Below are positions 3,476 to 31,580 of a DNA stretch of 32,000 nucleotides, one piece after another. Numbering within the stretch: position 1 is the first letter of the stretch; each line of letters begins with the position of its first letter. The translations under genes were made by a program, and so were the position numbers. The notes under the pieces are model-generated. The model worked only from the letters and a program-made list of their open reading frames with translations, was not told the origin of the DNA and did no database searches. Source of the stretch: Pseudomonadota bacterium (GTDB taxonomy: Bacteria; Pseudomonadota; Gammaproteobacteria; Pseudomonadales; Oceanobacteraceae); contig JAIXHJ010000003.1 of the NCBI GenBank assembly GCA_030145845.1, positions 92,426 to 124,425 of the forward strand. The letters run 5' to 3'.

Positions 3476-3486
3476 GCGTCCGGCAG

Positions 3487-3519
3487 AGCAGGCTCTGGCC
3501 GACAGATGCCTGCTTTGTT
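3487..3519 (+). terminator. Probable intrinsic terminator after the ceramidase-like gene
   Basis: agcaggc-tctg / cag(a)tgcctgct forms a stem with a 1-nt bulge and a 5-nt loop, followed by TTTGTT. Confidence 0.5.
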
Positions 3520-3606
3520 ACAGGATTGTCATATTCTTCCTTTAATTTTGGCGCCCCTGTTAAGTAGAATGACCCGCTGATCAGATCAGGGACTACAAGC
3601 ATCATC

Positions 3607-4377
3607 ATGTTTAAAGCCATTTGGGCGGCCCGTTGGTATGTGTTACTGGGCTTCTTCACATTCGTTATCGTTCTCGCCGTTAATACTCCTCTGCATTTCG
3701 TCTGGGGCTACGTTAAACCGCAGCTGGGGCGACTGCCTGTCCAGGTTGACCAGATTACCGGCACCGTCTGGGACGGCTCTGCGCGCCTGCGGGTCCCCAG
3801 GCTGAACAGCCTGGGCCCACTGGATGTCCGCTGGCAGCTGAGCCCTGTGGGCCTGCTGGGCGGTCAGGCGGATCTGGATGTGCACCTCAGTGGCAATGGC
3901 GTACGGCTCGATAGCGCCGCGTCTGTGGGCCTGAATCAGGTGCTGACACTGAGCGATGCCAGTGGTTATCTGGATGCTGCGGTGATTGCCCCGTTACTGA
4001 AACGGAACCGCGTGAATATTGCCGGCAGTTTTGAACTCAGCCAGCTGAATACCACGCTGGACACCAGCGCCGGGAATATTCAGGCACTGAGTGGCCGGCT
4101 GGTGTACAGCGGTGGTGCGATCGGTTTTCCGGTCAATAACAAGCCGGTTTCTGCGACCATGCCGGTGGTGGTGGGTGTGCTGGGAATGGATGGTGATAAA
4201 GCCGTTATTGATGCCGCCACCACGGATAATCTGCCGCTGATGCAGGGCTATATGCAGGCCGATGGCTGGGGCGGCGTGTCTATCCGCCGACGTTTCCTTG
4301 ATGTGCTGGGGCAGCAGTGGCCGAACCCGGCAGAAGAAGACACGGTTATTTTTGAAGTGTCTCATAAGGTTCTGTAA
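3607..4377 (+). CDS. gspN: Type II secretion system protein N (GspN), 256 aa
   Basis: N-terminal membrane anchor (WYVLLGFFTFVIVLAV) followed by ..LPVQVDQITGTVWDGSARL.., as is typical of GspN. It lies immediately upstream of gspC and gspD. Confidence 0.7.
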   Translation: MFKAIWAARWYVLLGFFTFVIVLAVNTPLHFVWGYVKPQLGRLPVQVDQITGTVWDGSARLRVPRLNSLGPLDVRWQLSPVGLLGGQADLDVHLSGNGVRLDSAASVGLNQVLTLSDASGYLDAAVIAPLLKRNRVNIAGSFELSQLNTTLDTSAGNIQALSGRLVYSGGAIGFPVNNKPVSATMPVVVGVLGMDGDKAVIDAATTDNLPLMQGYMQADGWGGVSIRRRFLDVLGQQWPNPAEEDTVIFEVSHKVL

Positions 4378-4409
4378 CCTTGAGCGCCTTGTAAACGGAG
4401 TATGACGCT

Positions 4410-5264
4410 TTGGCTGAACAGTTAGCAGAGTTAACAGGCTGGCAGCGCTTGTCGCTGGTGCTGGGTAAGACAGTACTTACCCTGCTGATTGCCACCCAGC
4501 TGGCCTGGCTGACCTGGCTGATTATTGCCCCGGAACCCCTGGTTCTGCGCGCGCCGGCCAAAGGACAGGTGGCTGAGGACAGTGCGGCGACTGCCGGTAC
4601 CGGTCAGTACCACCTGTTTGGTGATTACACGGCGGCACCGGTGGAGGAAGTACCACAGGAAGTTGAAGCACCGGATACCCGTCTGCGTCTTGAATTGCTG
4701 GGCGTTACCCGCTCCTCACGCAACGAATTGTCGTCTGCGATTATTGCGCCGAAGGGTGGCGCCGGTGATTTTTACCGGATCGGCGATGTGGTGCAGGGTC
4801 GTACCCGGCTGGCGGCGGTTTATGACGACAAGGTGATTCTGGATACCAACGGTAAGCTGGAAACCCTGAAGTTTGATGAAGAGTCCAAACGGGGGCTGGA
4901 AGCCCGGGCAGTCCAGGCACCGGAGCCGGACAGCTCCATACGTGACCGCTTCAAAGAGGTCCGTAATCCGACCGATTTTATGAATCTGGTGAATGAAGAA
5001 GCCGCGTCCGACCCGGAAGGGGCTCTGCGTGAAATGGGGCTGAAAGCAGCCGGGCCGGGGCAGGGTTATGTGGTGCAGAAAGGCTCAATGCTGACGGCGC
5101 TGCAGCTGCAGCCGGGCGATATCGTACTGTCAGTGAATGGTCAGCCGCTGGGGGATCCACAGTCGGATCAGCAGATTCTGCAGCAGGTGACAGAAGAAGG
5201 TAATGCCCGCATTGAAGTGCAGCGGGGTAACAGTCGTTTTGTCGTCAATCACAGTCTGAATTAA
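4410..5264 (+). CDS. gspC: Type II secretion system protein C (GspC) with C-terminal PDZ domain, 284 aa
   Basis: TTG start with GGAG 9 nt upstream. Single N-terminal TM (VLTLLIATQLAWLTWLII), an HR-like middle region (RLELLGVT...AIIAP.G..DFYRIGD...AVYDDKVILD) and a PDZ-like C-terminus (LQLQPGDIVLSVNGQPLGD). Directly precedes gspD. Confidence 0.8.
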   Translation: MAEQLAELTGWQRLSLVLGKTVLTLLIATQLAWLTWLIIAPEPLVLRAPAKGQVAEDSAATAGTGQYHLFGDYTAAPVEEVPQEVEAPDTRLRLELLGVTRSSRNELSSAIIAPKGGAGDFYRIGDVVQGRTRLAAVYDDKVILDTNGKLETLKFDEESKRGLEARAVQAPEPDSSIRDRFKEVRNPTDFMNLVNEEAASDPEGALREMGLKAAGPGQGYVVQKGSMLTALQLQPGDIVLSVNGQPLGDPQSDQQILQQVTEEGNARIEVQRGNSRFVVNHSLN

Positions 5265-5276
5265 AAGGAAATAAGT

Positions 5277-7184
5277 GTGTTTAAGCAGTGGGCATTCCTG
5301 TTCTTAATGTTTATCAGCGCCGGTGTTCAGGCTGCGGCCAAGGATAACTGGCAGATCAATATGAAGGACGCTGACATCGGCGCCTTTATCAGTCAGGTAG
5401 CGGATATTACCGGCCGCAGTTTTGTCGTTGACCCCAGGGTCAAAGGCAAGATCAATGTGTTGTCCAGCGAGCCGATGGATCAGGAAGGTGTGTATGAACT
5501 CTTCCTGTCCGTACTGCAGGTGCAGGGCTATGCGGCTGTACCGGCGGGGAATGTCACTCTGATTGTGCAGCAGAATGACGTCAAACAGGCCGGACGTGAC
5601 CTGAATGACAGTTACCCGGATGGCAGTCAGGAACTGCTCACCAAAGTCATTATGATCAAAAATACCCCGGCGCTGGATCTGGTGCCTATCCTGCGTCCGC
5701 TGGTGGCCAAATATGGTCATCTGGCCGGGGTGAAATCCGCGAATGCGCTGATTATTTCTGATCACGCGGCCAATATCAGCCGCATCGAACAGATTATTGA
5801 CCGGCTGGATAAATCCGGCAGTGAAGAACTGGAAGTGATTCAGCTGAAGGAAGCCTGGGTCGGTAATGTAGTGACCATGCTGCAGAATCTGGACCCGTCC
5901 AGGGTGGCGCAGGGTGCTTCCGCCAATGCCGCTGAAAATACCGCCGGTTCCATCCGCGTAGTGGCGGACGAGCGCAGTAACCGCCTGATTATCAAAGGCG
6001 AGAAAAGTGCGCGTGAGCGTATCCGCAAGCTGATTGAAGAGCTGGATCAGCCATCCTATTTCTCCGGTGCCGCCAAGGTTATCCGTCTGCAGTATGCGGA
6101 TGCCACCAAGCTGGCCGAAATGCTGAAAAATCTGCTTTCTGAAAGCACAACAACGGCTGAGAAAGAAGAGCAGCAGGTAAAAGGTTCGGTCGGGATTTAT
6201 GCCGATGAAGAACTGAATGCGCTGGTGGTGCGTGCTGAACCGTCGGTGATGAAAGAAGTCGAGGAACTGGTGAATTCACTGGATGTACGCCGGGCTCAGG
6301 TGCTGATCGAATCGGCGATTGTTGAAATCAGCGGCGACATTAATGATGCCCTTGGTGTGCAGTGGCTGTTCGGTGATCTGGATAATCCGGTTGCGGCGAC
6401 CAACTTCTCTGACGCCGGTACCTCACTGGCCGGTATTGCAACCTCGGTTGCCAGTGGCGATTACACCGATGCCATCAGCAATGGTCTGACGCTGGGCGGC
6501 TACAGTGAAATCAACGGTGAAGTCAGTTTTGGTGCCATCCTGCAGGCACTGAAAAGTAACTCCCATACGAACCTGTTGTCGACCCCGAGCATCATGACGC
6601 TGGATAACCAGGAAGCGGAAATTGTAGTGGGCCAGAATGTACCTTTCCTCACCGGCTCAACCGCATCCAGCAGCAACAGCAATCCGTTTACCACCATTAC
6701 CCGGGAAGATGTGGGTATCACCCTGAAAGTGAAACCCCATATTCATGATGGTGAAGCCATCCGTCTGGAAGTGGAAGCAACGGCGGAGTCAGTTTCCTCG
6801 ACTACCGTTGCCGGCAGTGCGGACCTGATCACCAATAAACGCTCCATCAAAACCATGATTCTGTCGGATGATCAGGAAACCATTGTACTGGGTGGACTGA
6901 TCCGTGATGACGTGACAGAGACTGAAAGCAAGGTGCCGCTGCTGGGCGATATTCCGCTGCTGGGCTGGCTGTTTAAATCCAAGTCCAAAAGCCATACCAA
7001 AAACAATATGATGGTTTTCCTGCGCCCGACGATTGTTGATAACCCGGGTAAAGCGAAGGAACTGACGCACGATAAATTCAATGGTATCTGGGAATTCAGT
7101 GTGTCGGACCAGCTGGGTGCCGAGGATATCAACAACCGCCTGAATCTGTTGTTTGACGGCTTACCGATCAAGCGCGAAGACTGA
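5277..7184 (+). CDS. gspD: Type II secretion system secretin GspD, 635 aa
   Basis: Signal peptide, then an N0 domain (NMKDADIGAFISQVADITGRSFVVDPRVKGKINV), N1-N3 repeats, and a secretin core (LLSTPSIMTLDNQEAEIVVGQNVPF...VPLLGDIPLLGWLFKS...MVFLRPTIV). GTG start with AAGGAA RBS. Confidence 0.95.
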   Translation: MFKQWAFLFLMFISAGVQAAAKDNWQINMKDADIGAFISQVADITGRSFVVDPRVKGKINVLSSEPMDQEGVYELFLSVLQVQGYAAVPAGNVTLIVQQNDVKQAGRDLNDSYPDGSQELLTKVIMIKNTPALDLVPILRPLVAKYGHLAGVKSANALIISDHAANISRIEQIIDRLDKSGSEELEVIQLKEAWVGNVVTMLQNLDPSRVAQGASANAAENTAGSIRVVADERSNRLIIKGEKSARERIRKLIEELDQPSYFSGAAKVIRLQYADATKLAEMLKNLLSESTTTAEKEEQQVKGSVGIYADEELNALVVRAEPSVMKEVEELVNSLDVRRAQVLIESAIVEISGDINDALGVQWLFGDLDNPVAATNFSDAGTSLAGIATSVASGDYTDAISNGLTLGGYSEINGEVSFGAILQALKSNSHTNLLSTPSIMTLDNQEAEIVVGQNVPFLTGSTASSSNSNPFTTITREDVGITLKVKPHIHDGEAIRLEVEATAESVSSTTVAGSADLITNKRSIKTMILSDDQETIVLGGLIRDDVTETESKVPLLGDIPLLGWLFKSKSKSHTKNNMMVFLRPTIVDNPGKAKELTHDKFNGIWEFSVSDQLGAEDINNRLNLLFDGLPIKRED

Positions 7185-14536: not shown

Positions 14537-14602
14537 CTGTAATTTTATTGTCTTGTTTTTGTCACAAAACTGCACGCGGATTGTCATTTTCCTGCTCTAG
14601 CC
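14537..14602 (+). promoter_or_regulatory. Array of six Pho-box-like half-sites in strict 11-bp phase (three candidate PhoB boxes) upstream of the PhoX-like gene
   Basis: ctgtaat-ttta / ttgtctt-gttt / ttgtcac-aaaa / ctgcacg-cgga / ttgtcat-tttc / ctgctct. Each is a 7-mer plus a mostly A/T-rich 4-mer, compared with the E. coli consensus CTGTCAT-A(A/T)A(T/A)-CTGTCA(C/T). All are in the + orientation, 36-100 nt upstream of the CDS. Confidence 0.65.
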
Positions 14603-14637: not shown

Positions 14638-16620
14638 ATGAGAGAGATGGCTATGAAATTCCTGGAAAAGAATCGCCTGGCTCAGGCGGTCGCGGTTTCC
14701 ACGCTGACAGCAATGCTGGCAGCCTGTGGTGGCAGCAGTAGCAGCAGTAATGACAGCACCAGCGGTGATAATTCAACCGTAACTTCAACAACTGCCTTTA
14801 CCGCCAGCACTGCCTGCCCGAACGGTGGTATCACTGTTGAAAGTGGTATCGACGAAAACGGTAACGGTGTTCTGGACGCAAGCGAAGTCGATAACACTCA
14901 GGAAGTGTGTAACGGTTCTGATGGTGAAGACCTGACTGTTGCGGATCACACCACAGCAACTTACGGTACTGATCTGGTTTTCTCCGGTGTAAGTGCTCCG
15001 GCTACTGACGCTGAAAAACGTACAATCACGGCATCTGATGCTGTTATTAACGAGACTGTTTTCGGTGGCACGTACAACACTCTGGCCCGCTCCGGTACTG
15101 ACTACAACGGTGTGACTTTCGGTCAGCTGGTAAACGAGTCCGGCACTGTACTGCAGAGCACTGATGGCAGCATCAATGTCACCAACTCCAACGAACACAC
15201 TTCTCTGCTGCCGATCGGTGACAAACTGTTCTCCGTGTCACAGATGGAATCCACTCCGGGTGCAATGTTCCTGATGGAACTGAACCAGGATGATGAAACC
15301 GGTGCTCTGTCGGTTAAAAACATGACACAGATTGATCAGTCCGGCGTTAATGGTGGCTGGGTGCACTGTGCGGCTTCTGTGACGCCATGGACCACACACC
15401 TGGCTTCAGAAGAATACGAACCGAATGCCCGTAAACCGGACAGCGGTCAGCGCGGTATGCTGTCTTACTACGAAGACGAAGCTGACTGGAACCCCTACTT
15501 CTACGGCTGGAATATTGAAATTGAAGTCTCAGAAGATTCCTCAACTGAGCTGACCAAGCACTATGCCATGGGTCGTCTGGCGTTCGAACTGGCATACGTC
15601 ATGCCTGACTCCAAAACCGCTTACATGACTGATGACGGCACCAATGTCGGCTTCTTTATGTTTGTTGCTGATACGGCCGGCGATCTGAGTGCAGGTACCC
15701 TGTACGCGGCCAAGTGGACTCAGACTTCCGGTGACAATGGTGGTGCAGCAGATATCAGCTGGATCGACCTGGGTCATGCTTCTGACGATGATATCCTGCC
15801 ATATGTGGTTGGTACCGATACCCAGGCGCAGCTGGCCTTCACCGATCTGTTTGAAACAGAAGATGTTGTCAGCGGTGCCTGCAGCACTGACGGCTTCACT
15901 TATGTGAATACAGCGAGTGGTGGTGCAGAGTGTCTGAAAGTGGTTGACGGTATGGAAACTCTGGCTTCCCGTATGGAAACCCGCCGCTACGCTGCTGTTC
16001 AGGGCGCTTCTATTGAATTCAAGAAAGAAGAAGGTGTGACCTTCGATCCGGTACGCAGCAAACTGTACGTTGGTATGTCCAGTGTCGGCAGTGGTATGAG
16101 CGATACCAGTGGTGATATTCAGCTGGCTGAAGGTAATTCCTGTGGCATCGTCTATGAACTGGATGTGGCTGCTGACACCAATATCGGTTCCAGCTATGTT
16201 GCCAACAACATGAGCGCTATGGTTCTGGGTCGTCCGGTTTCTGCTGAAGATCCTCAGGTTGCCGGTTATGAAGATAACAACAGCTGCCACATTGATGGTA
16301 TCGCTAACCCGGATAACGTTACCTACATGTCCGGTTACGATAAGCTGATTATCGGTGAAGATACCGGTGGTGGTCACCAGAATGACGTGATCTGGGCTTA
16401 TGAGTTTGATGATGAGTCCCTGACCCGTATTCAGACTACTCCTTACGGTGCAGAAACCACGTCGCCATACTGGTACCCGAACATTAATGGCTGGGCTTAC
16501 CTGATGTCTGTGGTACAGCATCCATATGGCGAGTCTGACTCGGATAAAAATACCGGTGCCGGCGAAGAATATGCTTACACTGGTTATATCGGTCCTTTCC
16601 CGGGTGTAACCGAAGAGTAA
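14638..16620 (+). CDS. PhoX-family (DUF839) putative phosphatase, predicted lipoprotein, 660 aa
   Basis: Lipobox MLAAC|GGSSSS. DUF839/PhoX-like segments: ..NGGWVHCAASVTPWTTHLASEEYEP.., ..GRLAFELAYVMPD.KTAYMTDD.., ..LIIGEDTGGGHQND.. and ..GAETTSPYW.....AYLMSVVQHP... The start could instead be ATG 14647 or 14653 (MKFLEKN..). Confidence 0.75.
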   Translation: MREMAMKFLEKNRLAQAVAVSTLTAMLAACGGSSSSSNDSTSGDNSTVTSTTAFTASTACPNGGITVESGIDENGNGVLDASEVDNTQEVCNGSDGEDLTVADHTTATYGTDLVFSGVSAPATDAEKRTITASDAVINETVFGGTYNTLARSGTDYNGVTFGQLVNESGTVLQSTDGSINVTNSNEHTSLLPIGDKLFSVSQMESTPGAMFLMELNQDDETGALSVKNMTQIDQSGVNGGWVHCAASVTPWTTHLASEEYEPNARKPDSGQRGMLSYYEDEADWNPYFYGWNIEIEVSEDSSTELTKHYAMGRLAFELAYVMPDSKTAYMTDDGTNVGFFMFVADTAGDLSAGTLYAAKWTQTSGDNGGAADISWIDLGHASDDDILPYVVGTDTQAQLAFTDLFETEDVVSGACSTDGFTYVNTASGGAECLKVVDGMETLASRMETRRYAAVQGASIEFKKEEGVTFDPVRSKLYVGMSSVGSGMSDTSGDIQLAEGNSCGIVYELDVAADTNIGSSYVANNMSAMVLGRPVSAEDPQVAGYEDNNSCHIDGIANPDNVTYMSGYDKLIIGEDTGGGHQNDVIWAYEFDDESLTRIQTTPYGAETTSPYWYPNINGWAYLMSVVQHPYGESDSDKNTGAGEEYAYTGYIGPFPGVTEE

Positions 16621-16641
16621 TATTCTGGCAGTAACCTCAGA

Positions 16642-16666
16642 GGGCGGGATTATCCCGCCCTTTTTT
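16642..16666 (+). terminator. Intrinsic terminator between the PhoX-like gene and the next same-strand gene
   Basis: gggcggga-tta-tcccgccc (8-bp GC-rich stem) followed by T6. It ends 18 nt before the next start codon. Confidence 0.8.
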
Positions 16667-16683
16667 ATGTGTGAGAGGTTGTT

Positions 16684-18342
16684 GTGAGAATTATTTCCCT
16701 GATGTTTGTAGCCGCTGTTGCAGTATCCGGCTGCACAGCATCATCCGAGCCGGTCAGTGATCATCTGACGGCCGACCGCCTGCTTAATAAAACCCCTTAT
16801 CTTTTACCTCAGTGTTATACCGATCCGGTGGATGACTCAGGAACATACAACCCTTGCTACGCCTGTCACACGGAAAGCAAAGAGCCGAATTATTTCAGCG
16901 ACATTGATGTTCAGCTGGCTTACAACATGCCGGAACCCGGTGTTAAGCATTCCTGGATGAATGTGTATAAGGACCGTAGCCAGGCGATCAGCAATATCAG
17001 TGATGAAGAGATTCTGACGTATGTCCGGCAGGATAATTATTTAGGTGAAGATGGCCGTATTACGCTGGCAGATAAACTGAATGAGGTTCCGGCTGAATGG
17101 GACCGGAATAAGAATGGCCAGTGGGATGGTTATATCCCGGATGTGTATTTCAATTTTAATGAGGCGGGTTTTGATCTGTCACCTGCAGGCCAACCAACAG
17201 GCTGGCGGGTATTTGCCTATTACCCCTTCCCAGGTACCTTTATGCCAACCAATGGCTCCACCGATGATGTGCTGATCCGTTTACCGGAAGCGTTCCGTGA
17301 ACTGGAAGCGGGTGTCTACGATCAGGAAACCTACCTGATCAACCTGGCCATTGTCGAGAGCATGGTAAAGGAGCAGGATGTCCGTATTCCGCAGGTTGAT
17401 GAAACCCGCTATGGCGTTGACCTGAACAAAGACGGTGAATTAACAACGGCTTCTGTCATCCGCTATGACTGGGCACCACTGAAAAACATTTATATGAGTT
17501 ATGTTGGTCAGGCCCGCTCCCTGCTTGAGCAGGGTAAGGTGCACCTGGCGGCACGCCTGTATCCGGAAGGTACCGAGTTTGTTCACACCGTGCGCTATGT
17601 CGATGTGGATGACTCAGGCAAGGCCGGTATTTCCCCCCGGATGAAAGAACTCCGCTATGGCCGTAAAGCCAGCTGGCGTAATTACTTTAATCTGCAGCGT
17701 TACGTTGAAAAAGAAGAGAAAGAGCGTCATGACTTTCCGGAGCGGACCAAGCAGGTTATCGGCAATATGGAAGAAGGACTGATTGTCGCTCAGGGCTGGG
17801 TATATCAGGGCTTTATTGAAGATAAAGAAGGTGAACTCCGGCCTCAGACTTATGAGGAAAACTATTTCTGTGTCGGTTGTCATACCGGTATCGGCGTGAC
17901 CACGGATACAACCTTTGCCTTTCCCCGCAAGTTTAAAGCAGAAGGGACCTTTAAGGATGGCTGGTATCACTGGATGGAAAAAGGATTTGATAATATCCCG
18001 GATTCTGTCCGCGAAGATGGTCACGGTGAGTATTCTTACTATCTGGAACATAACCCGACCGGTAATGAATTCCGTACTAATGATGAAGTTAAAGCGAAGT
18101 TCTTTAATGCCGATGGCAGTAAAAAAGCCGGGGCATTTGCAAAACTGGAGTCGGATATCAGCTATCTTCTGCTACCGACAAAAGAACGGGCTCTGATGCT
18201 GAATAAGGCCTACAGGGTTATCGTTGAGGAACAGAGTTTCACCGAAGGGCGGGATGCGGTTGTCAGGCCAATGGATATTGTGCAGAAAGAGGTTCAGTTG
18301 AATGGACCTACCGGCATCAAAGAGGTGCTCAGCTATTACTGA
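16684..18342 (+). CDS. Uncharacterised lipoprotein with two CXXCH (haem c attachment-type) motifs, 552 aa
   Basis: GTG start with GAGAGG RBS 5 nt upstream. Lipobox AVSGC|TAS. CYACH at nt 16855-16869 (aa 58-62) and CVGCH at nt 17869-17883 (aa 396-400). I recognise no family. Confidence 0.7.
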   Translation: MRIISLMFVAAVAVSGCTASSEPVSDHLTADRLLNKTPYLLPQCYTDPVDDSGTYNPCYACHTESKEPNYFSDIDVQLAYNMPEPGVKHSWMNVYKDRSQAISNISDEEILTYVRQDNYLGEDGRITLADKLNEVPAEWDRNKNGQWDGYIPDVYFNFNEAGFDLSPAGQPTGWRVFAYYPFPGTFMPTNGSTDDVLIRLPEAFRELEAGVYDQETYLINLAIVESMVKEQDVRIPQVDETRYGVDLNKDGELTTASVIRYDWAPLKNIYMSYVGQARSLLEQGKVHLAARLYPEGTEFVHTVRYVDVDDSGKAGISPRMKELRYGRKASWRNYFNLQRYVEKEEKERHDFPERTKQVIGNMEEGLIVAQGWVYQGFIEDKEGELRPQTYEENYFCVGCHTGIGVTTDTTFAFPRKFKAEGTFKDGWYHWMEKGFDNIPDSVREDGHGEYSYYLEHNPTGNEFRTNDEVKAKFFNADGSKKAGAFAKLESDISYLLLPTKERALMLNKAYRVIVEEQSFTEGRDAVVRPMDIVQKEVQLNGPTGIKEVLSYY

Positions 18343-18360: not shown

Positions 18361-18386
18361 AAAAGCGGCCTGTCGGCCGCTTTTTT
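18361..18386. terminator. Bidirectional intrinsic terminator between the convergent CXXCH-lipoprotein gene and ppnN
   Basis: A-run, then gcggcc-tgtc-ggccgc hairpin (18365-18380), then T6. Confidence 0.85.
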
Positions 18387-19746
18387 ATTTTACAATTTCA
18401 TAACAGGGTTCGTACCCTCCGCTGATTTTCATCCTGCCATGATCGACCATGGCTGATAACAGGGTATCCATACCTGTCATGATCTCCTCATCGCCTTGCA
18501 GCTGATAGGGGCCGTGCTCCTGCACCCGTAATACGCCACTGGCTTTGACGTTACCGGCGACGATGCCGGAAAATGCGCGCCGCAGGTTTGCCGCCAGCTG
18601 GTGATGGGGCAGGGCTTTGCTCAGGTTCAGACTGGCCATGGCTTCATGAGTCGGATCAAACGGCAGCTGGAAATCTTCGGCGATCGTCAGTGCCCAGTTA
18701 AAGAAGAAGGCATCGTTGTTGGAGCAACGGTATTCTTCAACGGCTGTCATACCGGTTTTCATATAACGGGCTACCGCTGCTGCGTCATCAATAATCAGCT
18801 CATAACGCTGGCGGGCCTCATCCCCAAGAGTGGTGGCAATAAAATTATCCAGATCACGCAGATAGGCTTCTGACTCAGCCGGGCCGGTTACGACCACAGG
18901 GAAAGGGATGGCCTGGTTATCCGGGTGGGAAAGAACCCCTAACAGATACAGGAGCTCTTCGGCAGTGCCCGGGCCGCCGGGGAAAATCACAATACCATGC
19001 GCCATACGCATAAAGGCTTCCAGACGTTTTTCAATGTCCGGCAGAATAACCAGTTCGTTAACAATCGGGTTGGGGGCTTCGCTGGCGATAATGCCCGGTT
19101 CGGTAATGCCGATATAACGTCCTTCGCGGTTATGTTGTTTGGCGTGAGCGATGGTGCAGCCTTTCATCGGCCCTTTCATCGCACCCGGACCACAGCCGGT
19201 ACCAACATTCAGGCCGCGTAAGCCCAGTTGGTAGCCAACATCTTTGGTGTACTGGTATTCGTGTCTGGGAATGGAGTGCCCACCCCAGCAGATCACCAGG
19301 TCGGGTCGTCTGTCCGGTTTCAGCAGGTTGGCGTTGCGCAGCAGGTGAAAAACGGCGTTGGTGATATCTTCACTGCGGTTAAGATCAAAGCGGTGTGCTT
19401 TTAATATGGATTCCTGTGCATACAGTACATCACGCAGAACAGAAAACAGCTGCTCGCGTACACCGCGGATAATTTCGCCATCGACAAAAGCGCTCTGAGG
19501 CGGATTGATCAGGTTAAGAATGATACCACGATCTTCCTGCTCAACGCGGATATTGAAATCGCGGAACTCAGTTTCCAGGTCAAGGTAATTATCAGACTGA
19601 CTGCCGGCGCTGAGGACTGCGTAGCAGCAGCGTCTGACCAGTTCATGTGATTCGCTGCTGACATCTTTCAGCATCTGAATTTCATAGCGTGACAGAACAC
19701 GCAGGTGGGTTTTCGGGTGAATCAGTTCGTAATGGGTTGTTGCCAC
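18385..19746 (-). CDS. ppnN: Nucleotide 5'-monophosphate nucleosidase PpnN (LOG family, YgdH), 453 aa
   Basis: Length and sequence are collinear with E. coli PpnN: ..MLKDVSS...C.YAVL.SGS..DN...L...F.DFNI.V....RGI.L.LINPP..AFVDG.IIR. It carries the LOG motif VIFPGGPGTAEEL. GTG start with GAGGAG RBS. Confidence 0.92.
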   Translation of the reverse strand: MATTHYELIHPKTHLRVLSRYEIQMLKDVSSESHELVRRCCYAVLSAGSQSDNYLDLETEFRDFNIRVEQEDRGIILNLINPPQSAFVDGEIIRGVREQLFSVLRDVLYAQESILKAHRFDLNRSEDITNAVFHLLRNANLLKPDRRPDLVICWGGHSIPRHEYQYTKDVGYQLGLRGLNVGTGCGPGAMKGPMKGCTIAHAKQHNREGRYIGITEPGIIASEAPNPIVNELVILPDIEKRLEAFMRMAHGIVIFPGGPGTAEELLYLLGVLSHPDNQAIPFPVVVTGPAESEAYLRDLDNFIATTLGDEARQRYELIIDDAAAVARYMKTGMTAVEEYRCSNNDAFFFNWALTIAEDFQLPFDPTHEAMASLNLSKALPHHQLAANLRRAFSGIVAGNVKASGVLRVQEHGPYQLQGDEEIMTGMDTLLSAMVDHGRMKISGGYEPCYEIVK

Positions 19747-24889: not shown

Positions 24890-25179
24890 GTTCTGTCTCC
24901 TGAATCAGATAACAAAAGGGTGGCTATTTTAGAGGAATGTGTTTGTGAATCACAATCACAGCTCTGTGGACTGAAAATGGCAGGTGCGACGGATTCTGCG
25001 ACTAACGTCTTGGTTACATACAGATACAAAATGGGAGGGTGATAAGACAGGAATCATACTTTTGAGTGATGAGGGTGCGCTTCGGCCAGATTATAGTCAT
25101 GGCTTCACTCTGGGGTGGGGAGACTCTCATTACTCTCCGGAGTGCACTAATAACCATAAAAACACAGACAGGTAGCAAT

Positions 25180-28100
25180 ATGGTGAAGAAGACCCTTCTC
25201 AGTCTGGCCATCGCAGCCACCGCAGCGGGCCTTGCCGGCTGTAATATCAGTAGCGTTGAAAAGTACAACGACGATGTCGATCAGACAGCTGTCAACTCCG
25301 GCTTGCCTGGCGCGACCCCTGGCCGGGTTGCACCGGTATTTTCTGCGGGTAATAAAGACCTGCCACTGATTACCGACTTTATCTTCAGCGAGGCGGCGGC
25401 GACGGATGGAACTGCAAGTGTTGATGACACAACACCTCCGGTCACGACCGCGATGAATTCCATTGAAGGTGCATCCGTTGTTGCACCTATTGATATTGAA
25501 TTCAATGCTCCGCTGGACGCTGAATCACTGAACCAGCCTCTGGCGGTAAACCTGATTAAGTTGCGTAATTATCAGGATGACCCTGATATCGACGCGCTTG
25601 ATATTGACACTATTGTTGCTAACTCTGATGTTGAAAATGGTATCCCGCAGGTCGTTGCGGATGACCAGCCTGTAGCTGGTGTAGATTACACGGTTTCTTT
25701 CCTGAACCTTGATAGTGGTGACACACCAACATTACGTATCAATCTTATCAACCCATTGGATGCACGTTCCAAATACATCGTTGCCCTGACGTCTAATCTG
25801 AAAGCTGAAAATGGGGAGAATGCAGGTCCATCGGCAGAATATGAGCTTCTTTCCGGCAGCCTTGAACTTCCATCTGATGCGCTGGAACCTGTGCGTACAG
25901 CGATTCAGGGATGGGAGCAGATTGCTGAGGGATATCTGACTCAGGTTGCTGCGCTGTACAGCATTGCTAAACCGGATGTCATTCTGAGTTATGCCTTTAC
26001 GACCGGTGGTACCAATGAAGTCCTCAAAAGTATCGCGGCACCGAAACTGTATGTGATGGCCCTGGCTTCCCGGCCTGATACGGCGAAATCATTGTATCTG
26101 GCAGTGCTGAGCTCTTTAAATGGTGGAGATCTGACTGCTGTTCAGACTGCCTATATCACGAATATTATTGTGCCGGCAGCTACCGCTGAAAGTATTACTC
26201 TGAGCGGGACTCCGACAGCAGAAGAAATTGCTGCTGTTGAAGTGACTGATACCTATAAAACGATGATTGTCACTGCAGCCAGCAGCTCTGCGGTTATTGA
26301 TGCTGTTGCTGCGACTTTGTATACACCTTCCAGTCAGACTTATAAGCCTATTATGAAACCTGCCAGTCTTGGCGGTGACGTCGTGGCGCTTTCTCCCAGC
26401 AATATCCCGGCGTTTACCGGAACCGCTTTTTCTGCCGATACCCTGACTCACTATGTTCAGGGGCAGCTTCAGCTTCCTGTGGGGCTGACCTCTCCGGCTT
26501 TAACAAATACTCAGGCTCTTGCTTCCGGTGATCCGGCGACTATCGCCGGAGCTGTTAAGCTAAGCATGGCTTCTGATAGCGTCTGGAGCGCGTACTCTGT
26601 TAATGGTGGGTTGACACCTCCATCAGATAATAAAATTTTTGATCCTGCGACGGGTACCCTGACCAGTGAAGGCGTGACTGTTGTGTCAACCGATGAGGAT
26701 GGTAGTCCGGAAGAATACAGTGGTGGCATGACCAATGTAACCTATCGTTATCCGCTGGCGGACTTAAGTGAAACAGAATATGCGCCGGTGATGGTGACTC
26801 TTCCTGGCGGTGATTATACATTCGGTGGAGCAAACCCGGATACGACCGCTCAGGATTGTTCAGCTTATTCAAAATATCCGGTTCTGTTGTACGTTCATGG
26901 CATCACATCAGACCGTACATCCAGTCTTGCAATAGGTGCGGCAGCTGCATCCAAAGGGTGTTTTGCAACTGTTGCTCTGGATCTCCCTCTTCATGGTGTG
27001 GCTCCTCTGGTCTCCGATCGTGATGGGACTTCCGAGCTGAATGGCGCCATGGCGTTCAATGTTGAGCAGGCAACAGATCTGTCGTCTTTAACTGTCGGTA
27101 GCGCCGAGTACATCACAGCTTTTTCTGAGGCCCCTTATGCCAATGCGGCCGCTATTGATGGCTCGTTTGACCTGCAGGAGCGTCACTTCAATATCGGAGC
27201 CGAACCGGCCAGCAGTGCCCGGGTAAGTATGGTATATGGTGATTCAGCGGCGACTTCACTTGGTAAGTCCGGCGATCTGTTTATCAACTTAGCCAATATG
27301 GGGCGGCTGCGGGACAACATGCGTGAAGCAGTTGTTGATCAGATGCACTTACTGGCTTCCCTGGCAGATATGGATGTTGATGGCGACGGCGTTGCTGATC
27401 TCGATGCTGATAATGTCTATGTCGCCGGTATTTCTCTGGGGGCTATTGTCGCTTCGTCTTTGGTTGCAACCGTTAATGATCCTCAGGTTCAGGCGGTCAA
27501 TGGTCTGGATAATGGTGGTACGCTTCCATTGATTAAAGGCGTTGTGTTGTCCAGTCCTGGTGGTTCTCTGCCGAAAATGCTGGAAAACTCTCCTGCTTTC
27601 TCCACTAAGGTTCTGGCAGGTCTGAATCTGGCTCAGGACAGTTCAGCACTGCAGAAGTATGAAGCAATGTTGCAGACTGCGCTGAACAGTGTTGATCCGA
27701 TTAATTTCGCGTCTGCCATGAGTCAGCAGAATACGCCGGTGCTGATGTTCAGTATGGTTGGTGGCGGTGATTGCCCTGCTTTTGACATTGCTACTGCCGC
27801 CTGTTCGGACGGTTCTCAACGCTTACCATCGGATCTTACTCTGGCCTTCCAGGGGAAATATCCGGCAGATCATGTGGTTCCTAATTACGACTACTTCAAA
27901 GCTGCTGACAGTAATCCGTTTACAAATGTTATGCCTGGCCTGACTTATGAGTTAGGTGATCTGGGGGCAAAAACTGAAATTGCTTTGACGGAAATGACTT
28001 CTTCTGCGATGCCTCTGGCTGGTACCGCCCCTCTGGCAGAACAAATGGGTCTGAAACCAGTTGTCGGGGATAATATCGCTAGTGTATCCGGTAATAAATA

Positions 28101-28263
28101 TGTGCTGCAGTTTGATAAAGGTACACATTCGACCTTTGCAGCTGCTGATGACACTGCTGTGTTTACTACCATGATGGCCCAGATGCTGACATTCTTCTCT
28201 GGAGGTACTGCTAATGGTCTTAACCCATTAACAACCGATGGCATTAAACCTGCTGCAGAATAA
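25180..28263 (+). CDS. VolA/Pla-1-family extracellular lipase/(lyso)phospholipase, predicted lipoprotein, 1027 aa
   Basis: Start at ATG 25180. Lipobox GLAGC|NIS. The N-terminal region (..APVFSAGNKDLPLITDFIF....DGT......PVTTAMNSIEGASVVAPIDIEF..PLD..SL) resembles the bacterial virulence-factor lipase N-terminal domain. An alpha/beta-hydrolase part follows (YPVLLYVHGITSDR....ALDLPLHG) with the nucleophile elbow G-I-S-L-G at nt 27427-27441. Confidence 0.65.
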   Translation: MVKKTLLSLAIAATAAGLAGCNISSVEKYNDDVDQTAVNSGLPGATPGRVAPVFSAGNKDLPLITDFIFSEAAATDGTASVDDTTPPVTTAMNSIEGASVVAPIDIEFNAPLDAESLNQPLAVNLIKLRNYQDDPDIDALDIDTIVANSDVENGIPQVVADDQPVAGVDYTVSFLNLDSGDTPTLRINLINPLDARSKYIVALTSNLKAENGENAGPSAEYELLSGSLELPSDALEPVRTAIQGWEQIAEGYLTQVAALYSIAKPDVILSYAFTTGGTNEVLKSIAAPKLYVMALASRPDTAKSLYLAVLSSLNGGDLTAVQTAYITNIIVPAATAESITLSGTPTAEEIAAVEVTDTYKTMIVTAASSSAVIDAVAATLYTPSSQTYKPIMKPASLGGDVVALSPSNIPAFTGTAFSADTLTHYVQGQLQLPVGLTSPALTNTQALASGDPATIAGAVKLSMASDSVWSAYSVNGGLTPPSDNKIFDPATGTLTSEGVTVVSTDEDGSPEEYSGGMTNVTYRYPLADLSETEYAPVMVTLPGGDYTFGGANPDTTAQDCSAYSKYPVLLYVHGITSDRTSSLAIGAAAASKGCFATVALDLPLHGVAPLVSDRDGTSELNGAMAFNVEQATDLSSLTVGSAEYITAFSEAPYANAAAIDGSFDLQERHFNIGAEPASSARVSMVYGDSAATSLGKSGDLFINLANMGRLRDNMREAVVDQMHLLASLADMDVDGDGVADLDADNVYVAGISLGAIVASSLVATVNDPQVQAVNGLDNGGTLPLIKGVVLSSPGGSLPKMLENSPAFSTKVLAGLNLAQDSSALQKYEAMLQTALNSVDPINFASAMSQQNTPVLMFSMVGGGDCPAFDIATAACSDGSQRLPSDLTLAFQGKYPADHVVPNYDYFKAADSNPFTNVMPGLTYELGDLGAKTEIALTEMTSSAMPLAGTAPLAEQMGLKPVVGDNIASVSGNKYVLQFDKGTHSTFAAADDTAVFTTMMAQMLTFFSGGTANGLNPLTTDGIKPAAE

Positions 28264-28283
28264 GATTGGGGCGGAGAATAAAT

Positions 28284-30179
28284 ATGAAAATAACAAATAT
28301 GGGTTTGCGCTCAATGAAAAAATTACCTTTATCTCTGGCTGTATCTGCTCTGGCTGCGTCTTCAGTGCAGGCCGTCGAGTTTAATTTCGGAGACCTCAGT
28401 GCCCAGTTCGATAATACCGTCAGTTATGGTGTCGCATGGCGTACCTCTGACCGTGATAAAGGCCAGATCATGCCGGGTAATGGGGCGGCCATTGGCGAAA
28501 CAACTTATGGCTCTTCTTACAACTATGACGACGGTACTCTGAACTACAGCAAAGGTGATATTTACACCAATGTTGTTAAATGGAGTGGGGATCTGGAGCT
28601 GAATTATCAGAATTATGGCGGTTTCTTCCGTGCCCGCGCTTACTATGATACGGCAATTATGGATGAAGATACTGACTTCAAACCACTGAGTGACGGTACC
28701 AAAGATGCTGCTGGCAAAGGTGCTGAACTGCTGGATGCTTATGTCTGGGCTGACTATGAAATTGGCTATACGCCAATCAACGTCCGTGTTGGTCGCCAGG
28801 TGGTAAGCTGGGGCGAAAGTACCTTTATTCAGGGTGGCATTAACAGCATTAACCCGGTGGATGCTTCTGCATTCCGTAAACCCGGAGCTGAAGTTAAGGA
28901 AGGTCTGCTGCCGGTTAATATGGTGTATACCTCAATCGGTCTGTCCACGGATTTAACACTGGAAGCTTTTTATCAGCTGCAATGGGAAAAAACCCGTACT
29001 GATCCATGTGGTACATTCTTTTCCACCGTTGATTTTGTCGCGGATGACTGTAGCCCGGTAATCCTGGGTGGAACGGCAGATGAGCGCGATATGCTTGCTT
29101 TCCGTGATGCGGAAATTGAAGCGGGCGTTCCGTTGTCTGATCGTGTTTCTCCGGTGACCGAACGTCTGCCGGATGATCAGCCGAAAGATTCCGGTCAGTA
29201 TGGTCTGGCTTTGCGCTGGTATTCAGAAGCACTGGGGGATACAGAATTCGGTCTGTACTACATGAATATCCACAGTCGTCTGCCATATATTAATGGTGCG
29301 GTGACCAATTACGATACGCTGGGTACTATCACCGGTACCGTCGGTGATCAGGTTAATGCCGATGCAACATACGATACTTACCGCCCTCTGTATCAGATTG
29401 CTTATCCTGAAGACATTCAGATCATGGGTATCAGTTTTGCGACCAGTACCGAAGATGGTGCATCCATTTCCGGTGAAATCAGTTACCGCCCGGATATGCC
29501 GGTGCAGTGGAACGCTTTTGAGCTGATTCTGGCCGGAACCGGTACGCCGTGGAGCCGTCTGTATCAGGCGCGTGCTGCTGAAGCCGATGATATTACCGAT
29601 CTTTATGGTGAGCTCACTAAAGGTTATGACGAACTTGATATCTGGCAGGCGCAGATGACGTATATCAAATTCTTTGACCGGGTCCTGGGGGCCGACCGCC
29701 TGGCTGTGGTGGGTGAAATCGGTATGACTTACGTAAACGACCTGCCGAGTACGGATGAAGCACGTTATGGCCGTTCCGGTGCTTATGGTATCGGTAATAA
29801 TGGTGGCGTATATGATTCCGTGAACCACTGTGCGGCCAGCGGTGATGCAACGGCAAACGTAAATACCGACTACTGTACCAATGACGGTTATACCACTGAG
29901 CTTTCCGGCGGTATCCGTGTGCGCAGTATTCTGGATTTCAATAACGCCTTTGCCGGTATTAACGTCAGCCCGATGCTGTCTGTTGCCTATGATAAAGGGA
30001 ATGGTCCGGAGCCGGGTGCGCAGTTTATTGATGATCGTCTGACCGTGGGTCTGGGGGTAACCTTTGTTTATCTGAACAAGACATCGGTGGATGTGACTTA
30101 CACCAACTTCTCCGGTGGCGACTACAATCAGATGGTTGACCGCGACAACATCGCCTTGTCTGCGAAATATTCGTTCTGA
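28284..30179 (+). CDS. DUF1302 family protein (predicted outer-membrane beta-barrel), 631 aa
   Basis: ATG 28284 with GGAG 7 nt upstream. Signal peptide ..LAVSALAASSVQA|VEF. The N-terminus VEFNFGDLSAQFDNTVSYGVAWRTSDRD is typical of DUF1302. The C-terminus ..IALSAKYSF has a terminal aromatic beta-signal. Confidence 0.85.
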   Translation: MKITNMGLRSMKKLPLSLAVSALAASSVQAVEFNFGDLSAQFDNTVSYGVAWRTSDRDKGQIMPGNGAAIGETTYGSSYNYDDGTLNYSKGDIYTNVVKWSGDLELNYQNYGGFFRARAYYDTAIMDEDTDFKPLSDGTKDAAGKGAELLDAYVWADYEIGYTPINVRVGRQVVSWGESTFIQGGINSINPVDASAFRKPGAEVKEGLLPVNMVYTSIGLSTDLTLEAFYQLQWEKTRTDPCGTFFSTVDFVADDCSPVILGGTADERDMLAFRDAEIEAGVPLSDRVSPVTERLPDDQPKDSGQYGLALRWYSEALGDTEFGLYYMNIHSRLPYINGAVTNYDTLGTITGTVGDQVNADATYDTYRPLYQIAYPEDIQIMGISFATSTEDGASISGEISYRPDMPVQWNAFELILAGTGTPWSRLYQARAAEADDITDLYGELTKGYDELDIWQAQMTYIKFFDRVLGADRLAVVGEIGMTYVNDLPSTDEARYGRSGAYGIGNNGGVYDSVNHCAASGDATANVNTDYCTNDGYTTELSGGIRVRSILDFNNAFAGINVSPMLSVAYDKGNGPEPGAQFIDDRLTVGLGVTFVYLNKTSVDVTYTNFSGGDYNQMVDRDNIALSAKYSF

Positions 30180-30218
30180 GTTATTGGCTGATATAAGAAT
30201 TACAGAGGTCTATGAAGC

Positions 30219-31580
30219 ATGTTGAATAAACACAGTAAATTCTGGGGCAGCGCGCTGGCGCTGTCCCTGATGATCGGTACAGCAGATGCTGCTGTGTCTG
30301 AGGCAGAAGCTGCAAAACTTGGCAAAGAACTGACCCCGGTTGGTGCTGAAATGGCAGGCAGTGGAGCTATCCCTGCCTGGACCGGCGGTCTGACCAAACC
30401 ACCGGCAGGCTATGTCGCGGGTGGTAAACCGGTTGACCCGTTTCCGGATGACAAAGTTAAGTTTGAGATTACGGCCAGGAATTATAAGCAGTATGCGGCA
30501 AATCTGACGGATGGTCAGAAAGCGATGTTTGAGAAATATCCGGACACCTACAAGATGCCGGTATATGAAACACGCCGTACCGCTGCCTATCCGCAGTTTA
30601 TTTATGATGAAACCAAAAAGAATGCGACCACAACCAAACTGCTTGAGGGCGGTAATGGCCTGACTAACTATTCAGAAGGCACGCCGTTCCCTATTCCGCA
30701 GAGTGGTGTTGAGGCCATCTGGAATCACATTGTGCGTTACCGTGGTGGCAGTGTCCGCCGTATTGTTGGTCAGGTGACACCACAGGTTAACGGTGATTTT
30801 ACTCTGGTCCGTTTCCAGGATGAGTTCACCTTCCGGAATAAACTGAAGGATTATAACCCTGAGCAGGATCAGAACGTGCTGTTCTACTTTAAGCAGGATG
30901 TTCTGTCTCCGGCGCGTCTGGCCGGTAACGTACTGCTGGTACATGAAACACTGGATCAGGTAAAAGAGCCGCGCAAAGCATGGGTATATAATGCCGGTCA
31001 GCGCCGTGTCCGCCGTGCGCCTCAGGTTTCTTATGATGGTCCGGGAACCGCGTCAGATGGTCTGCGTACCTCGGATAACCTGGATATGTATAACGGTGCC
31101 CCGGATCGCTATGACTGGAAACTGCTCGGTAAACAGGAAATTTATATCCCCTATAATTCCTATAAACTGAAAGATCCGAAGCTGAAGTACACTGACATCA
31201 TCAAGCCGGGACATATCAACCAGGATCTGGCCCGCTATGAACTGCACCGTGTATGGAAAGTCGAGGCAACCCTGAAAGAAGGTAAGCGTCACATCTATGC
31301 CAAGCGGGTATTCTATATTGATGAAGATACCTGGCAGGCAGCTGAGATTGATCATTACGATGGCCGTGGTGAACTGTGGCGTGTGGCTGAAGCCTACAGC
31401 CTGATGTACTACGAGCAGCTGGTTCCGTGGTACGCCCTCGAAACCCTGTACGATCTGAACTCCGGACGTTATCTGGCTCTGGGTCTGGATAATGAAGAAG
31501 AAGGTTCTTACGTGTTTGGCTTTGAACGTACTTCTGCGGATTACACACCGGCCGCTCTGCGCCGCAGTGGTGTCCGTTAA
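30219..31580 (+). CDS. DUF1329 family protein (periplasmic, outer-membrane lipoprotein-sorting-like fold), 453 aa
   Basis: Signal peptide ..LSLMIGTADA|AVS. AVSEAEAAKLGKELTPVGAEMAGSGAIPAWTGGL is the characteristic DUF1329 N-terminus. AGAGG RBS. Confidence 0.85.
   Translation: MLNKHSKFWGSALALSLMIGTADAAVSEAEAAKLGKELTPVGAEMAGSGAIPAWTGGLTKPPAGYVAGGKPVDPFPDDKVKFEITARNYKQYAANLTDGQKAMFEKYPDTYKMPVYETRRTAAYPQFIYDETKKNATTTKLLEGGNGLTNYSEGTPFPIPQSGVEAIWNHIVRYRGGSVRRIVGQVTPQVNGDFTLVRFQDEFTFRNKLKDYNPEQDQNVLFYFKQDVLSPARLAGNVLLVHETLDQVKEPRKAWVYNAGQRRVRRAPQVSYDGPGTASDGLRTSDNLDMYNGAPDRYDWKLLGKQEIYIPYNSYKLKDPKLKYTDIIKPGHINQDLARYELHRVWKVEATLKEGKRHIYAKRVFYIDEDTWQAAEIDHYDGRGELWRVAEAYSLMYYEQLVPWYALETLYDLNSGRYLALGLDNEEEGSYVFGFERTSADYTPAALRRSGVR

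Follow-up and report, generated by a model that had tools for sequence, protein, structure and literature searches.

A predicted dihaem lipoprotein of the Aq_1262 family and its pairing with a PhoX-like lipoprotein in a gammaproteobacterium

We analysed a stretch of 32,000 nucleotides (nt) from a Pseudomonadota bacterium of the Oceanobacteraceae (Gammaproteobacteria; assembly GCA_030145845.1, contig JAIXHJ010000003.1, positions 92,426 to 124,425), below called the window. The analysis concerns a gene encoding a protein of 552 amino acids (aa) at 16684-18342 and the gene of a PhoX-like lipoprotein that precedes it. By its sequence, the 552-aa protein is a member of the Pfam family PF27085 (Aq_1262), a catalogued family without a characterised member, and we infer that it is a dedicated periplasmic redox partner of the PhoX-like enzyme.

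Genes and control signals of the two-gene module

The two genes lie on the same strand with a gap of 63 nt, and the module sits between a Pho-box-like array and a terminator. The features are as follows.

14537-14587, plus strand: Pho-box-like array (CTGTAAT, TTGTCTT, TTGTCAC, CTGCACG, TTGTCAT) in an 11-bp phase, 51-101 nt upstream of the PhoX-like open reading frame (ORF)
14638-16620, plus strand: gene of a PhoX-family beta-propeller lipoprotein, 660-aa ORF, PF05787 and DUF7151
16639-16669, plus strand: GC-rich hairpin AGAGGGCGGGATTATCCCGCCCTTT followed by TTTTAT, resembling an intrinsic terminator (stem 16639-16663, 11 pairs, 7 of them GC, with a T-run)
16673-16678, plus strand: Shine-Dalgarno sequence GAGAGG, 5 nt before the GTG of the haem-protein gene, read from the sequence
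16684-18342, plus strand: predicted gene of the Aq_1262-family (PF27085) dihaem c-type lipoprotein, 552 aa
16684-16734, plus strand: signal peptide and lipobox VRIISLMFVAAVAVSGC, with Cys17 as the lipidated residue
16813-16815, plus strand: codon of Cys44 (in QCYT), the lone family-wide cysteine, 14 residues before haem motif 1
16855-16869, plus strand: haem-binding motif 1, CYACH, aa 58-62, from translation and family conservation
17539-17937, plus strand: beta-sheet sub-domain similar to cytochrome P460/c'-beta, aa ~286-418, with the conserved residues H301, Y305, K321, K328 and W372 and with haem motif 2
17869-17883, plus strand: haem-binding motif 2, CVGCH, aa 396-400, from translation and family conservation
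18365-18380, no single strand: bidirectional intrinsic terminator GCGGCC-TGTC-GGCCGC with A5/T6 flanks, read from the sequence

The triple-repeat pattern of Pho boxes had three overlapping matches in the window, against 0.5 expected, and all of them lie in 14537-14587; none of 100 shuffled sequences reached three. A first-pass annotation of the window had placed a Pho box upstream of the PhoX-like gene, and at the sequence level we find there five phased 7-mers, the only array in the window. In related loci, tandem sites of this type are enriched upstream of PhoX-like genes (25 of 74, compared with 14 of 337 control windows, Fisher p = 1e-11). The terminator at 18365-18380 closes both the two-gene unit and the convergent gene ppnN (18385-19746, minus strand). 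Searching the window against Rfam returned no RNA family.

The intergenic hairpin has a local fold of -21.8 kcal/mol and fills most of the gap, so no standard -35/-10 promoter fits between it and the GTG start codon of the haem-protein gene. The placement reported in the first-pass annotation, on the same strand directly after the PhoX-like gene and with no room for a standard promoter, is therefore correct, but the terminator-like hairpin intervenes and the two genes are probably not coupled in a simple way. Of about 60 related loci, about 25 likewise have a GC hairpin of -14 kcal/mol or stronger between the two genes, without homology in sequence. Judging from its sequence, the hairpin probably attenuates downstream expression, in which case co-transcription would be an attenuated read-through with the haem protein as the minor product.

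The PhoX-like ORF was recognised by PF05787 with 77.2 bits (cut-off 24), over profile positions 146-454 only, and by DUF7151. The protein consists of a lipobox (LAAC followed by GG), a Ser-rich linker, the DUF7151 module and then the propeller. The listed ATG at 14638 has no ribosome-binding site; the true start is probably ATG 14647 or 14653, located behind GAGAGAG and in better agreement with the N-termini of homologues (MKF/MEF...KKN.L). No twin-arginine motif was found in this protein. A profile of 28 partnered PhoX-like proteins, i.e. those encoded with a relative of the haem protein, matched PhoX of Pseudomonas fluorescens (3ZWU/4AMF) with E 4e-15, aligning the Fe-ligand Cys at C244 and the Glu-Glu that follows it at E258/E259. 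The AlphaFold2 model (predicted local distance difference test, pLDDT, 85.6) had PhoX 3ZWU as its top Foldseek match at E 1.5e-17, with other propellers at ~1e-5. The correspondence of the active sites was deduced from alignments with 3ZWU/4AMF and with 30 canonical PhoX sequences. The residues C244, E258, E259, E294, E317, D332, D333, E465, D559, D575, E606 and H628 are common to the partnered clade and the canonical proteins, whereas His254, His308, His580 and Glu574 are invariant in the partnered clade only, canonical PhoX having Tyr, Arg, Gly and Thr there.

Canonical PhoX (P. fluorescens, 3ZWU/4A9V) thus resembles the window protein in its propeller fold, Fe-ligand Cys, acidic and His residues and Pho-box control. 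It is, however, a substrate of twin-arginine translocation (Tat), whereas the window protein appears to be a lipoprotein of the general secretory (Sec) pathway with extra disulfide cysteines and a dihaem partner. The same split is seen in other genomes: an RR motif is present in 0-2 of 74 partnered PhoX-like proteins and a lipobox in 43 of the 74, whereas at least 24 of 30 canonical PhoX loci encode the SRRxxL Tat motif, with no dihaem neighbour. On another contig the same genome encodes a canonical PhoX (C17:25560-27215, minus strand; L086 1387-3381) with a PF05787 score of 530 bits, the Tat motif SRRRWLQGGAALAA and no haem-protein neighbour, so the organism keeps both the Tat type and the Sec/lipoprotein type.

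Family, conservation and predicted fold of the haem protein

The N-terminus of the haem protein is basic and then hydrophobic, and its signal peptide ends in the lipobox V-S-G-C17 followed by T-A-S, in agreement with the pattern [LVI][ASTVI][GAS]C. The Thr at position +2 suggests Lol sorting to the outer membrane. Among relatives in the fetched loci, 32 of 78 have a lipobox-like motif and the remainder show plain Sec-type N-termini. The 552-aa translation contains no CXXCH motifs beyond CYACH and CVGCH, the first cysteines of which are 338 residues apart. The first-pass annotation had read the same lipobox (SGC followed by TAS) and the same two motifs (58-62 and 396-400), to which the exact spacing can now be added. 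Two CXXCH motifs, a Sec/lipoprotein signal and CcmE encoded in the same genome, which makes covalent attachment of haem possible, together correspond to the sequence features of c-type cytochromes. The protein should be exported by Sec, anchored by lipid and equipped with two covalently bound c-type haems.

More than 3400 relatives were found in a large protein collection, and the 120 best listed all bear a precomputed PF27085 'Aq_1262' hit, with identities of 51-98 % and coverages of 83-100 % (nearly all at least 94 %). One of them is 98 % identical, also with PF27085. An exhaustive search of cluster representatives recovered 557 clusters at E <= 0.001. We assigned the window protein to PF27085 by homology to the annotated members, as this family is newer than the Pfam set that was scanned. 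The first-pass annotation had considered the protein unplaceable in any family. This holds for characterised dihaem families, but the protein belongs to a family that had already been catalogued. The NCBIfam scan of the haem protein gave no match, and a literature search on Aq_1262, and on PhoX with cytochromes, returned nothing on the PF27085 family.

All 88 close relatives have both CXXCH motifs, Cys44 and His301, and some 80 further positions do not vary among them either. For the wider family we counted each position out of 72-75 diverse full-length representatives, where the motif residues are kept in 93-100 %. In motif 1 these are Cys58 (72/73), Cys61 (72/73) and His62 (73/73), and in motif 2 Cys396 (69/74), Cys399 (71/74) and His400 (72/74). 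The conservation of CXXCH among homologues, which the first-pass annotation had named as a check, is therefore family-wide. Cys44 is kept in 72 of 73 of the diverse representatives within a family-wide QC(Y/H)T pattern, and a 31%-identical subfamily of 685 aa retains this cysteine as well as both CXXCH motifs. No conserved partner cysteine for Cys44 was found outside the two CXXCH in the family alignments; Cys44 may serve haem 1 as an axial ligand or as a redox-active thiol. His301 is present in 67 of 72 representatives, with Gln in the other five, and Tyr305 is universal; both residues lie on a strand of the P460-like sheet and could form the distal side of haem 2. We also considered Met271 as a haem ligand and dropped it, because the position is not conserved among the 75 diverse representatives.

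The AlphaFold2 model built from the 88-sequence alignment is a confident single body (pLDDT 92.5, predicted template modelling score 0.90). Foldseek comparison of this model with PDB gave no match at E <= 0.001. The best PDB matches were cytochromes P460/c'-beta, which cover one sub-domain only (6hiu, E 0.04, target template modelling (TM) score 0.59; range for these matches E 0.04-0.9, target TM 0.35-0.59). The PF16694 (Cytochrome_P460) profile scored 26.8 bits, below the cut-off of 27, with E 7.6e-6 over residues 286-411 and profile positions 40-124 only. Using hhalign against a P460 alignment built from 27 genomic sequences, we obtained a probability of 71 % and E 3.6e-5 over aa 320-418, which is half of the domain; the GW-aromatic motif and CXXCH were aligned and the N-terminal half was left unaligned. 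Sequence and profile searches of PDB chains gave no usable match. As for MauG and cytochrome c peroxidase (CCP), there was no Pfam match to PF03150, no CCP or MauG structure among the Foldseek matches and nothing in the PDB profile search. A match to a characterised dihaem family, the other check named in the first-pass annotation, was thus nowhere found with confidence.

Cytochrome P460/c'-beta proteins handle NH2OH or NO. They (PF16694; 6HIU, 2JE2, 7EAD) have a beta-sheet haem domain to which aa ~286-418 of the haem protein bear a weak likeness; the points in common would be a CXXCH close to the C-terminus of the domain, a GW-aromatic motif and, past the haem site, D-x-x-F. However, they are single-haem proteins of ~135-200 residues, whereas the window protein has 552 aa, two predicted haems and a match just under the Pfam cut-off. 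The model points to a novel two-haem architecture in which the second haem probably sits in a remote P460/c'-beta-like domain, and to a confidently predicted fold without a solved relative.

Linkage to PhoX-like genes and fusions to phosphoesterases

Scanning one genome per species, we recovered 566 loci that encode relatives of the haem protein and examined the best 80. These come from Gammaproteobacteria, Campylobacterota, Desulfobacterota, a betaproteobacterium and Leptospiraceae (four phyla). Of these 80 loci, 79 contain a PhoX-like gene, which in 76 cases immediately precedes the haem-protein gene on the same strand at a distance of 19-612 nt. In the one locus without it, the contig extends no more than 88 nt upstream. 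Clustering of 857 ORFs from the 80 loci identified no third conserved neighbour, only lineage-specific ones such as PpnN. Pairwise distances of the two proteins are correlated over 64 loci (r = 0.72, Mantel p <= 0.001), a correlation to which shared species history contributes.

As the best 80 loci are biased to close relatives, we also used an even sample of 301 class genomes, 16 of which encode the haem protein at E <= 1e-20. In 11 of these a PhoX-like gene is adjacent, and in two more the neighbour is a divergent PF05787 gene (G103, in reversed order, and G088). The latter two had been candidates for orphan haem genes, which was rejected as each is paired with this more divergent member of the PhoX family. 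The remainder consists of one genome with both genes unlinked, one contig edge and one complete genome in which the clade profile found no PhoX-like gene. Two further genomes pair a PhoX-like gene with the 685-aa lipoprotein mentioned above, which hhalign identified as an Aq_1262 member (probability 100 %, E 3e-45), so that in total 15 of 18 carriers have a PhoX-family gene adjacent.

In Competibacteraceae (L003 5448-10046) both the PhoX-like and the Aq_1262 protein have gained a DUF4214 domain, and DUF7151, present on the PhoX-like protein of the window, is elsewhere found on an Aq_1262 homologue. A small Metallophos gene lies just upstream of the Competibacteraceae pair and likewise in Bowmanella (L002).

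Among six PhoX-like genes without a partner, five encode substitutions at sites where the partnered proteins never vary (E294Q, H254L/P, K307G, D332S, N500L/I and Y260N/L, in L121, L122, L124, L127 and L128), possibly by relaxed constraint after loss of the partner. In the complete genome without a PhoX-like gene by the clade profile (G220), a flavohaemoglobin gene (globin + FAD + NAD) lies 1.4 kb upstream of the Aq_1262 gene (L119 6366-8021, plus strand), and between the two, on the other strand, is a gene for a homocysteine S-methyltransferase.

Besides gene pairs we found natural fusions. At least 10 distinct proteins of 1030-1100 aa, from Polyangiaceae (myxobacteria) and metagenomes (P0146, P0273-P0281), carry Aq_1262 fused C-terminally to a PF04185 phosphoesterase of the AcpA/phospholipase C (PLC) type. 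Each of them is a lipoprotein that contains both CXXCH motifs and occurs on its own in its locus (e.g. L118 8001-11213). The AcpA/PLC fold has no relation to that of PhoX, so the PhoX pairing and these fusions connect the haem module with two kinds of phosphoesterase that do not share a fold. In place of Aq_1262, the closest PF04185 proteins outside the fusions have either a small mono-haem c domain (CxxCH, preceded by a Gly-rich linker) or a cupredoxin (P0282-P0295, P0301, P0302, P0306). We asked if the mono-haem C-terminal domain of the myxobacterial phosphoesterases is half an Aq_1262 and rejected this (hhalign probability 3 %). The joining of a secreted phosphoesterase to a one-electron carrier seems to recur more widely in these sequences. 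The first-pass annotation had suggested that the protein may be a redox lipoprotein with two haems and a functional link to the PhoX-like enzyme, to be checked by conserved linkage to PhoX-family (DUF839) genes. The linkage across four phyla and in the even sample, the phosphoesterase fusions and the conserved motifs all speak for it.

Other Aq_1262 members are fused to PD40 or YncE/cd1-like beta-propellers (P0128, P0170, P0132), and in one genome (G143) a 1084-aa propeller-Aq_1262 fusion (L132 268-3522, minus strand) follows a normal PhoX-like/Aq_1262 pair. One Sulfurovum locus has a PhoX-like, an Aq_1262 and a MauG-like trihaem gene in a row; the third, in a metagenome-assembled genome (L070 5759-7219, plus strand), encodes a 486-aa protein with three CXXCH, a cytochrome c domain and CCP_MauG (144 bits). 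Farther from the pair, the window contains a gene for a 1065-aa protein that begins with the N-terminal domain of bacterial lipases and, behind it, a DUF1302/DUF1329 pair (25066-31580, plus strand), and at the opposite end a neutral ceramidase-like gene and a GspD secretin gene (1370-7184).

Proposed role of the haem protein

A comparable arrangement has been described in Flavobacterium. The PhoX-like lipoprotein Fjoh_2478 of F. johnsoniae is strongly induced by phosphate depletion and contributes to the inducible phosphatase activity; expressed alone in P. putida, it showed no activity. In all Flavobacterium genomes its gene shares an operon with that of a MauG-like c-type dihaem peroxidase (Fjoh_2477), which is co-induced, and the authors suggested a possible MauG-like maturation step for the lipoprotein (PMC8812569, PMC8115612). 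The likeness to the window pair lies in the arrangement: a gene for a lipid-anchored, distantly PhoX-related phosphatase is followed by a c-type dihaem gene. However, Fjoh_2477 is a CCP/MauG protein, whereas the window protein belongs to PF27085 and not to PF03150, with its widely spaced motifs and a different predicted fold. In both systems the mechanism is a proposal. The existence of PF27085 and, for a non-homologous partner, the idea of a haem accessory protein for a PhoX-like lipoprotein are therefore already known.

MauG itself oxidatively matures methylamine dehydrogenase, a redox client that gains a quinone cofactor. MauG of Paracoccus denitrificans is a working analogy only: it is a periplasmic dihaem protein encoded beside one dedicated client enzyme, and one reactive and one relay haem may be possible in the window protein too. 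The two have no sequence or fold relationship, and the client of MauG is a redox enzyme, whereas the client here would be a metallo-hydrolase.

The pair could work as follows. Under phosphate starvation PhoB would drive transcription of the two-gene module, and the intergenic hairpin would pass only part of the transcripts, giving less haem protein than enzyme. The haem protein would act on the phosphoesterase as a dedicated periplasmic redox helper. By withdrawing electrons it would oxidise Fe(II) acquired outside the cytoplasm to the Fe(III) that the Fe-Ca site contains or, as an alternative within the helper view, re-oxidise or repair that site. By a MauG-like logic, the haem in the P460-like pocket may be open to a small oxidant and the haem near Cys44 may relay electrons. 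Canonical PhoX, exported folded via Tat, would not need the helper. In our tentative judgement, the likeliest job of the haem protein is to assemble the Fe(III)-Ca site oxidatively, or to maintain it, in enzymes exported in the unfolded state. We favour it because of the contrast between Tat and Sec export, the intact metal-site residues, the precedent in Flavobacterium and the apparent decay of orphan enzymes.

Several observations weigh against this proposal. The terminator-like hairpin could mean that the two genes are expressed independently. In five near-complete genomes a Sec-type PhoX-like gene is present, but even a profile search brought up no Aq_1262 relative, so the helper is not universally required, and we reject the stronger statement that every Sec-exported PhoX-like enzyme needs Aq_1262. 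In the complete genome G220 Aq_1262 is present and no PhoX-like gene was found by the clade profile, the general PF05787 search not having been run on it. Phosphoesterases of the AcpA/PLC type are not known to use a redox-active metal, and the idea of Fe(II)-to-Fe(III) conversion is thus not obviously transferable to the fusions. Finally, carriers of the Aq_1262 family include strict anaerobes along with aerobes, which leaves no obvious single oxidant.

Alternatively, the haem protein could be a catalytic electron acceptor, where a metal site of phosphoesterase type would oxidise phosphite, hypophosphite or another substrate and the haems would pass the electrons to the periplasmic cytochrome pool. 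We consider this unlikely. In its favour, the haem domain goes with phosphoesterases of two unrelated folds, in the PhoX operon and the AcpA/PLC fusions, and related AcpA/PLC enzymes are fused to a cupredoxin or mono-haem c domain; two folds and other carriers would point to redox chemistry at phosphoesterase sites generally and not at PhoX iron in particular. Pho-box control fits the acquisition of phosphorus, and PhoA, PafA and P. fluorescens PhoX were all reported to oxidise phosphite slowly (PMC12704751). However, phosphite oxidation by phosphatases, as known, releases H2 and needs no acceptor, the hairpin suggests a sub-stoichiometric haem protein, the PhoX-like protein retains the full set of hydrolase residues, and no phosphite transport or ptx genes were found nearby in the neighbourhood clustering of the 80 loci. 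The specific version, in which the PhoX-like/Aq_1262 pair and the AcpA-type fusions are a Pho-controlled periplasmic phosphite:cytochrome c oxidoreductase (or one for other reduced phosphorus) and not a hydrolase with a helper, strikes us as quite improbable.

We are similarly doubtful about a role in iron-mineral reduction or iron supply, in which the haem lipoprotein would reduce Fe(III) (oxyhydr)oxides and so free adsorbed phosphate and phosphoesters or provide iron for the enzyme beside it on the cell envelope. Both proteins are lipid-anchored with non-Asp +2 residues that suggest the outer membrane, many hosts come from sediments, sulfidic interfaces or particles, and single-electron carriers fused to secreted phosphoesterases would suit such a role. 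But nothing shows surface exposure or an outer-membrane electron conduit, many relatives without a lipobox are apparently soluble in the periplasm, and a P460-like pocket is atypical of mineral reductases. We give a slim chance to protection or sensing, where a five-coordinate haem of the P460/c'-beta-like kind would bind NO, O2 or H2O2 and either detoxify oxidants harmful to the Fe-thiolate site of the enzyme or gate its activity by redox state. The remote likeness to P460/c'-beta, the Gln that some members have instead of the distal-side His301, a change to be expected where a pocket residue is not a ligand, and the one orphan copy near a flavohaemoglobin gene agree with it. The likeness is weak and sub-threshold, however, the orphan context is a single case with separate transcription units, and the second haem, Cys44 and the near-obligate pairing would be left unexplained. 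That the cytochrome is unrelated and merely shares the locus, the alternative kept in the first-pass annotation, is very unlikely. It would agree with the terminator-like hairpin between the genes and with the few genomes that have one gene without the other, but not with adjacency over four phyla while other neighbours differ, natural fusions to phosphoesterases and the correlated divergence of the two proteins.

PhoX-type enzymes have a major part in the recycling of organic phosphorus in the sea and in soils, and through their iron requirement the cycles of phosphorus and iron are connected. The near-constant pairing or fusion described here suggests a branch of phosphatases that needs a redox helper, itself a haem protein with an unusual lone conserved cysteine beside a haem site. 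If the Sec-exported branch does depend on a cytochrome, counts of phoX genes alone would misjudge phosphatase capacity, and heterologous expression without the partner would fail, as was seen once in Flavobacterium. The building of an Fe(III)-Ca cofactor outside the cytoplasm would then be directly testable with a two-gene system. Beyond PhoX, secreted phosphoesterases are repeatedly found fused to electron carriers with haem or copper, which hints at an undescribed redox-linked phosphorus chemistry.

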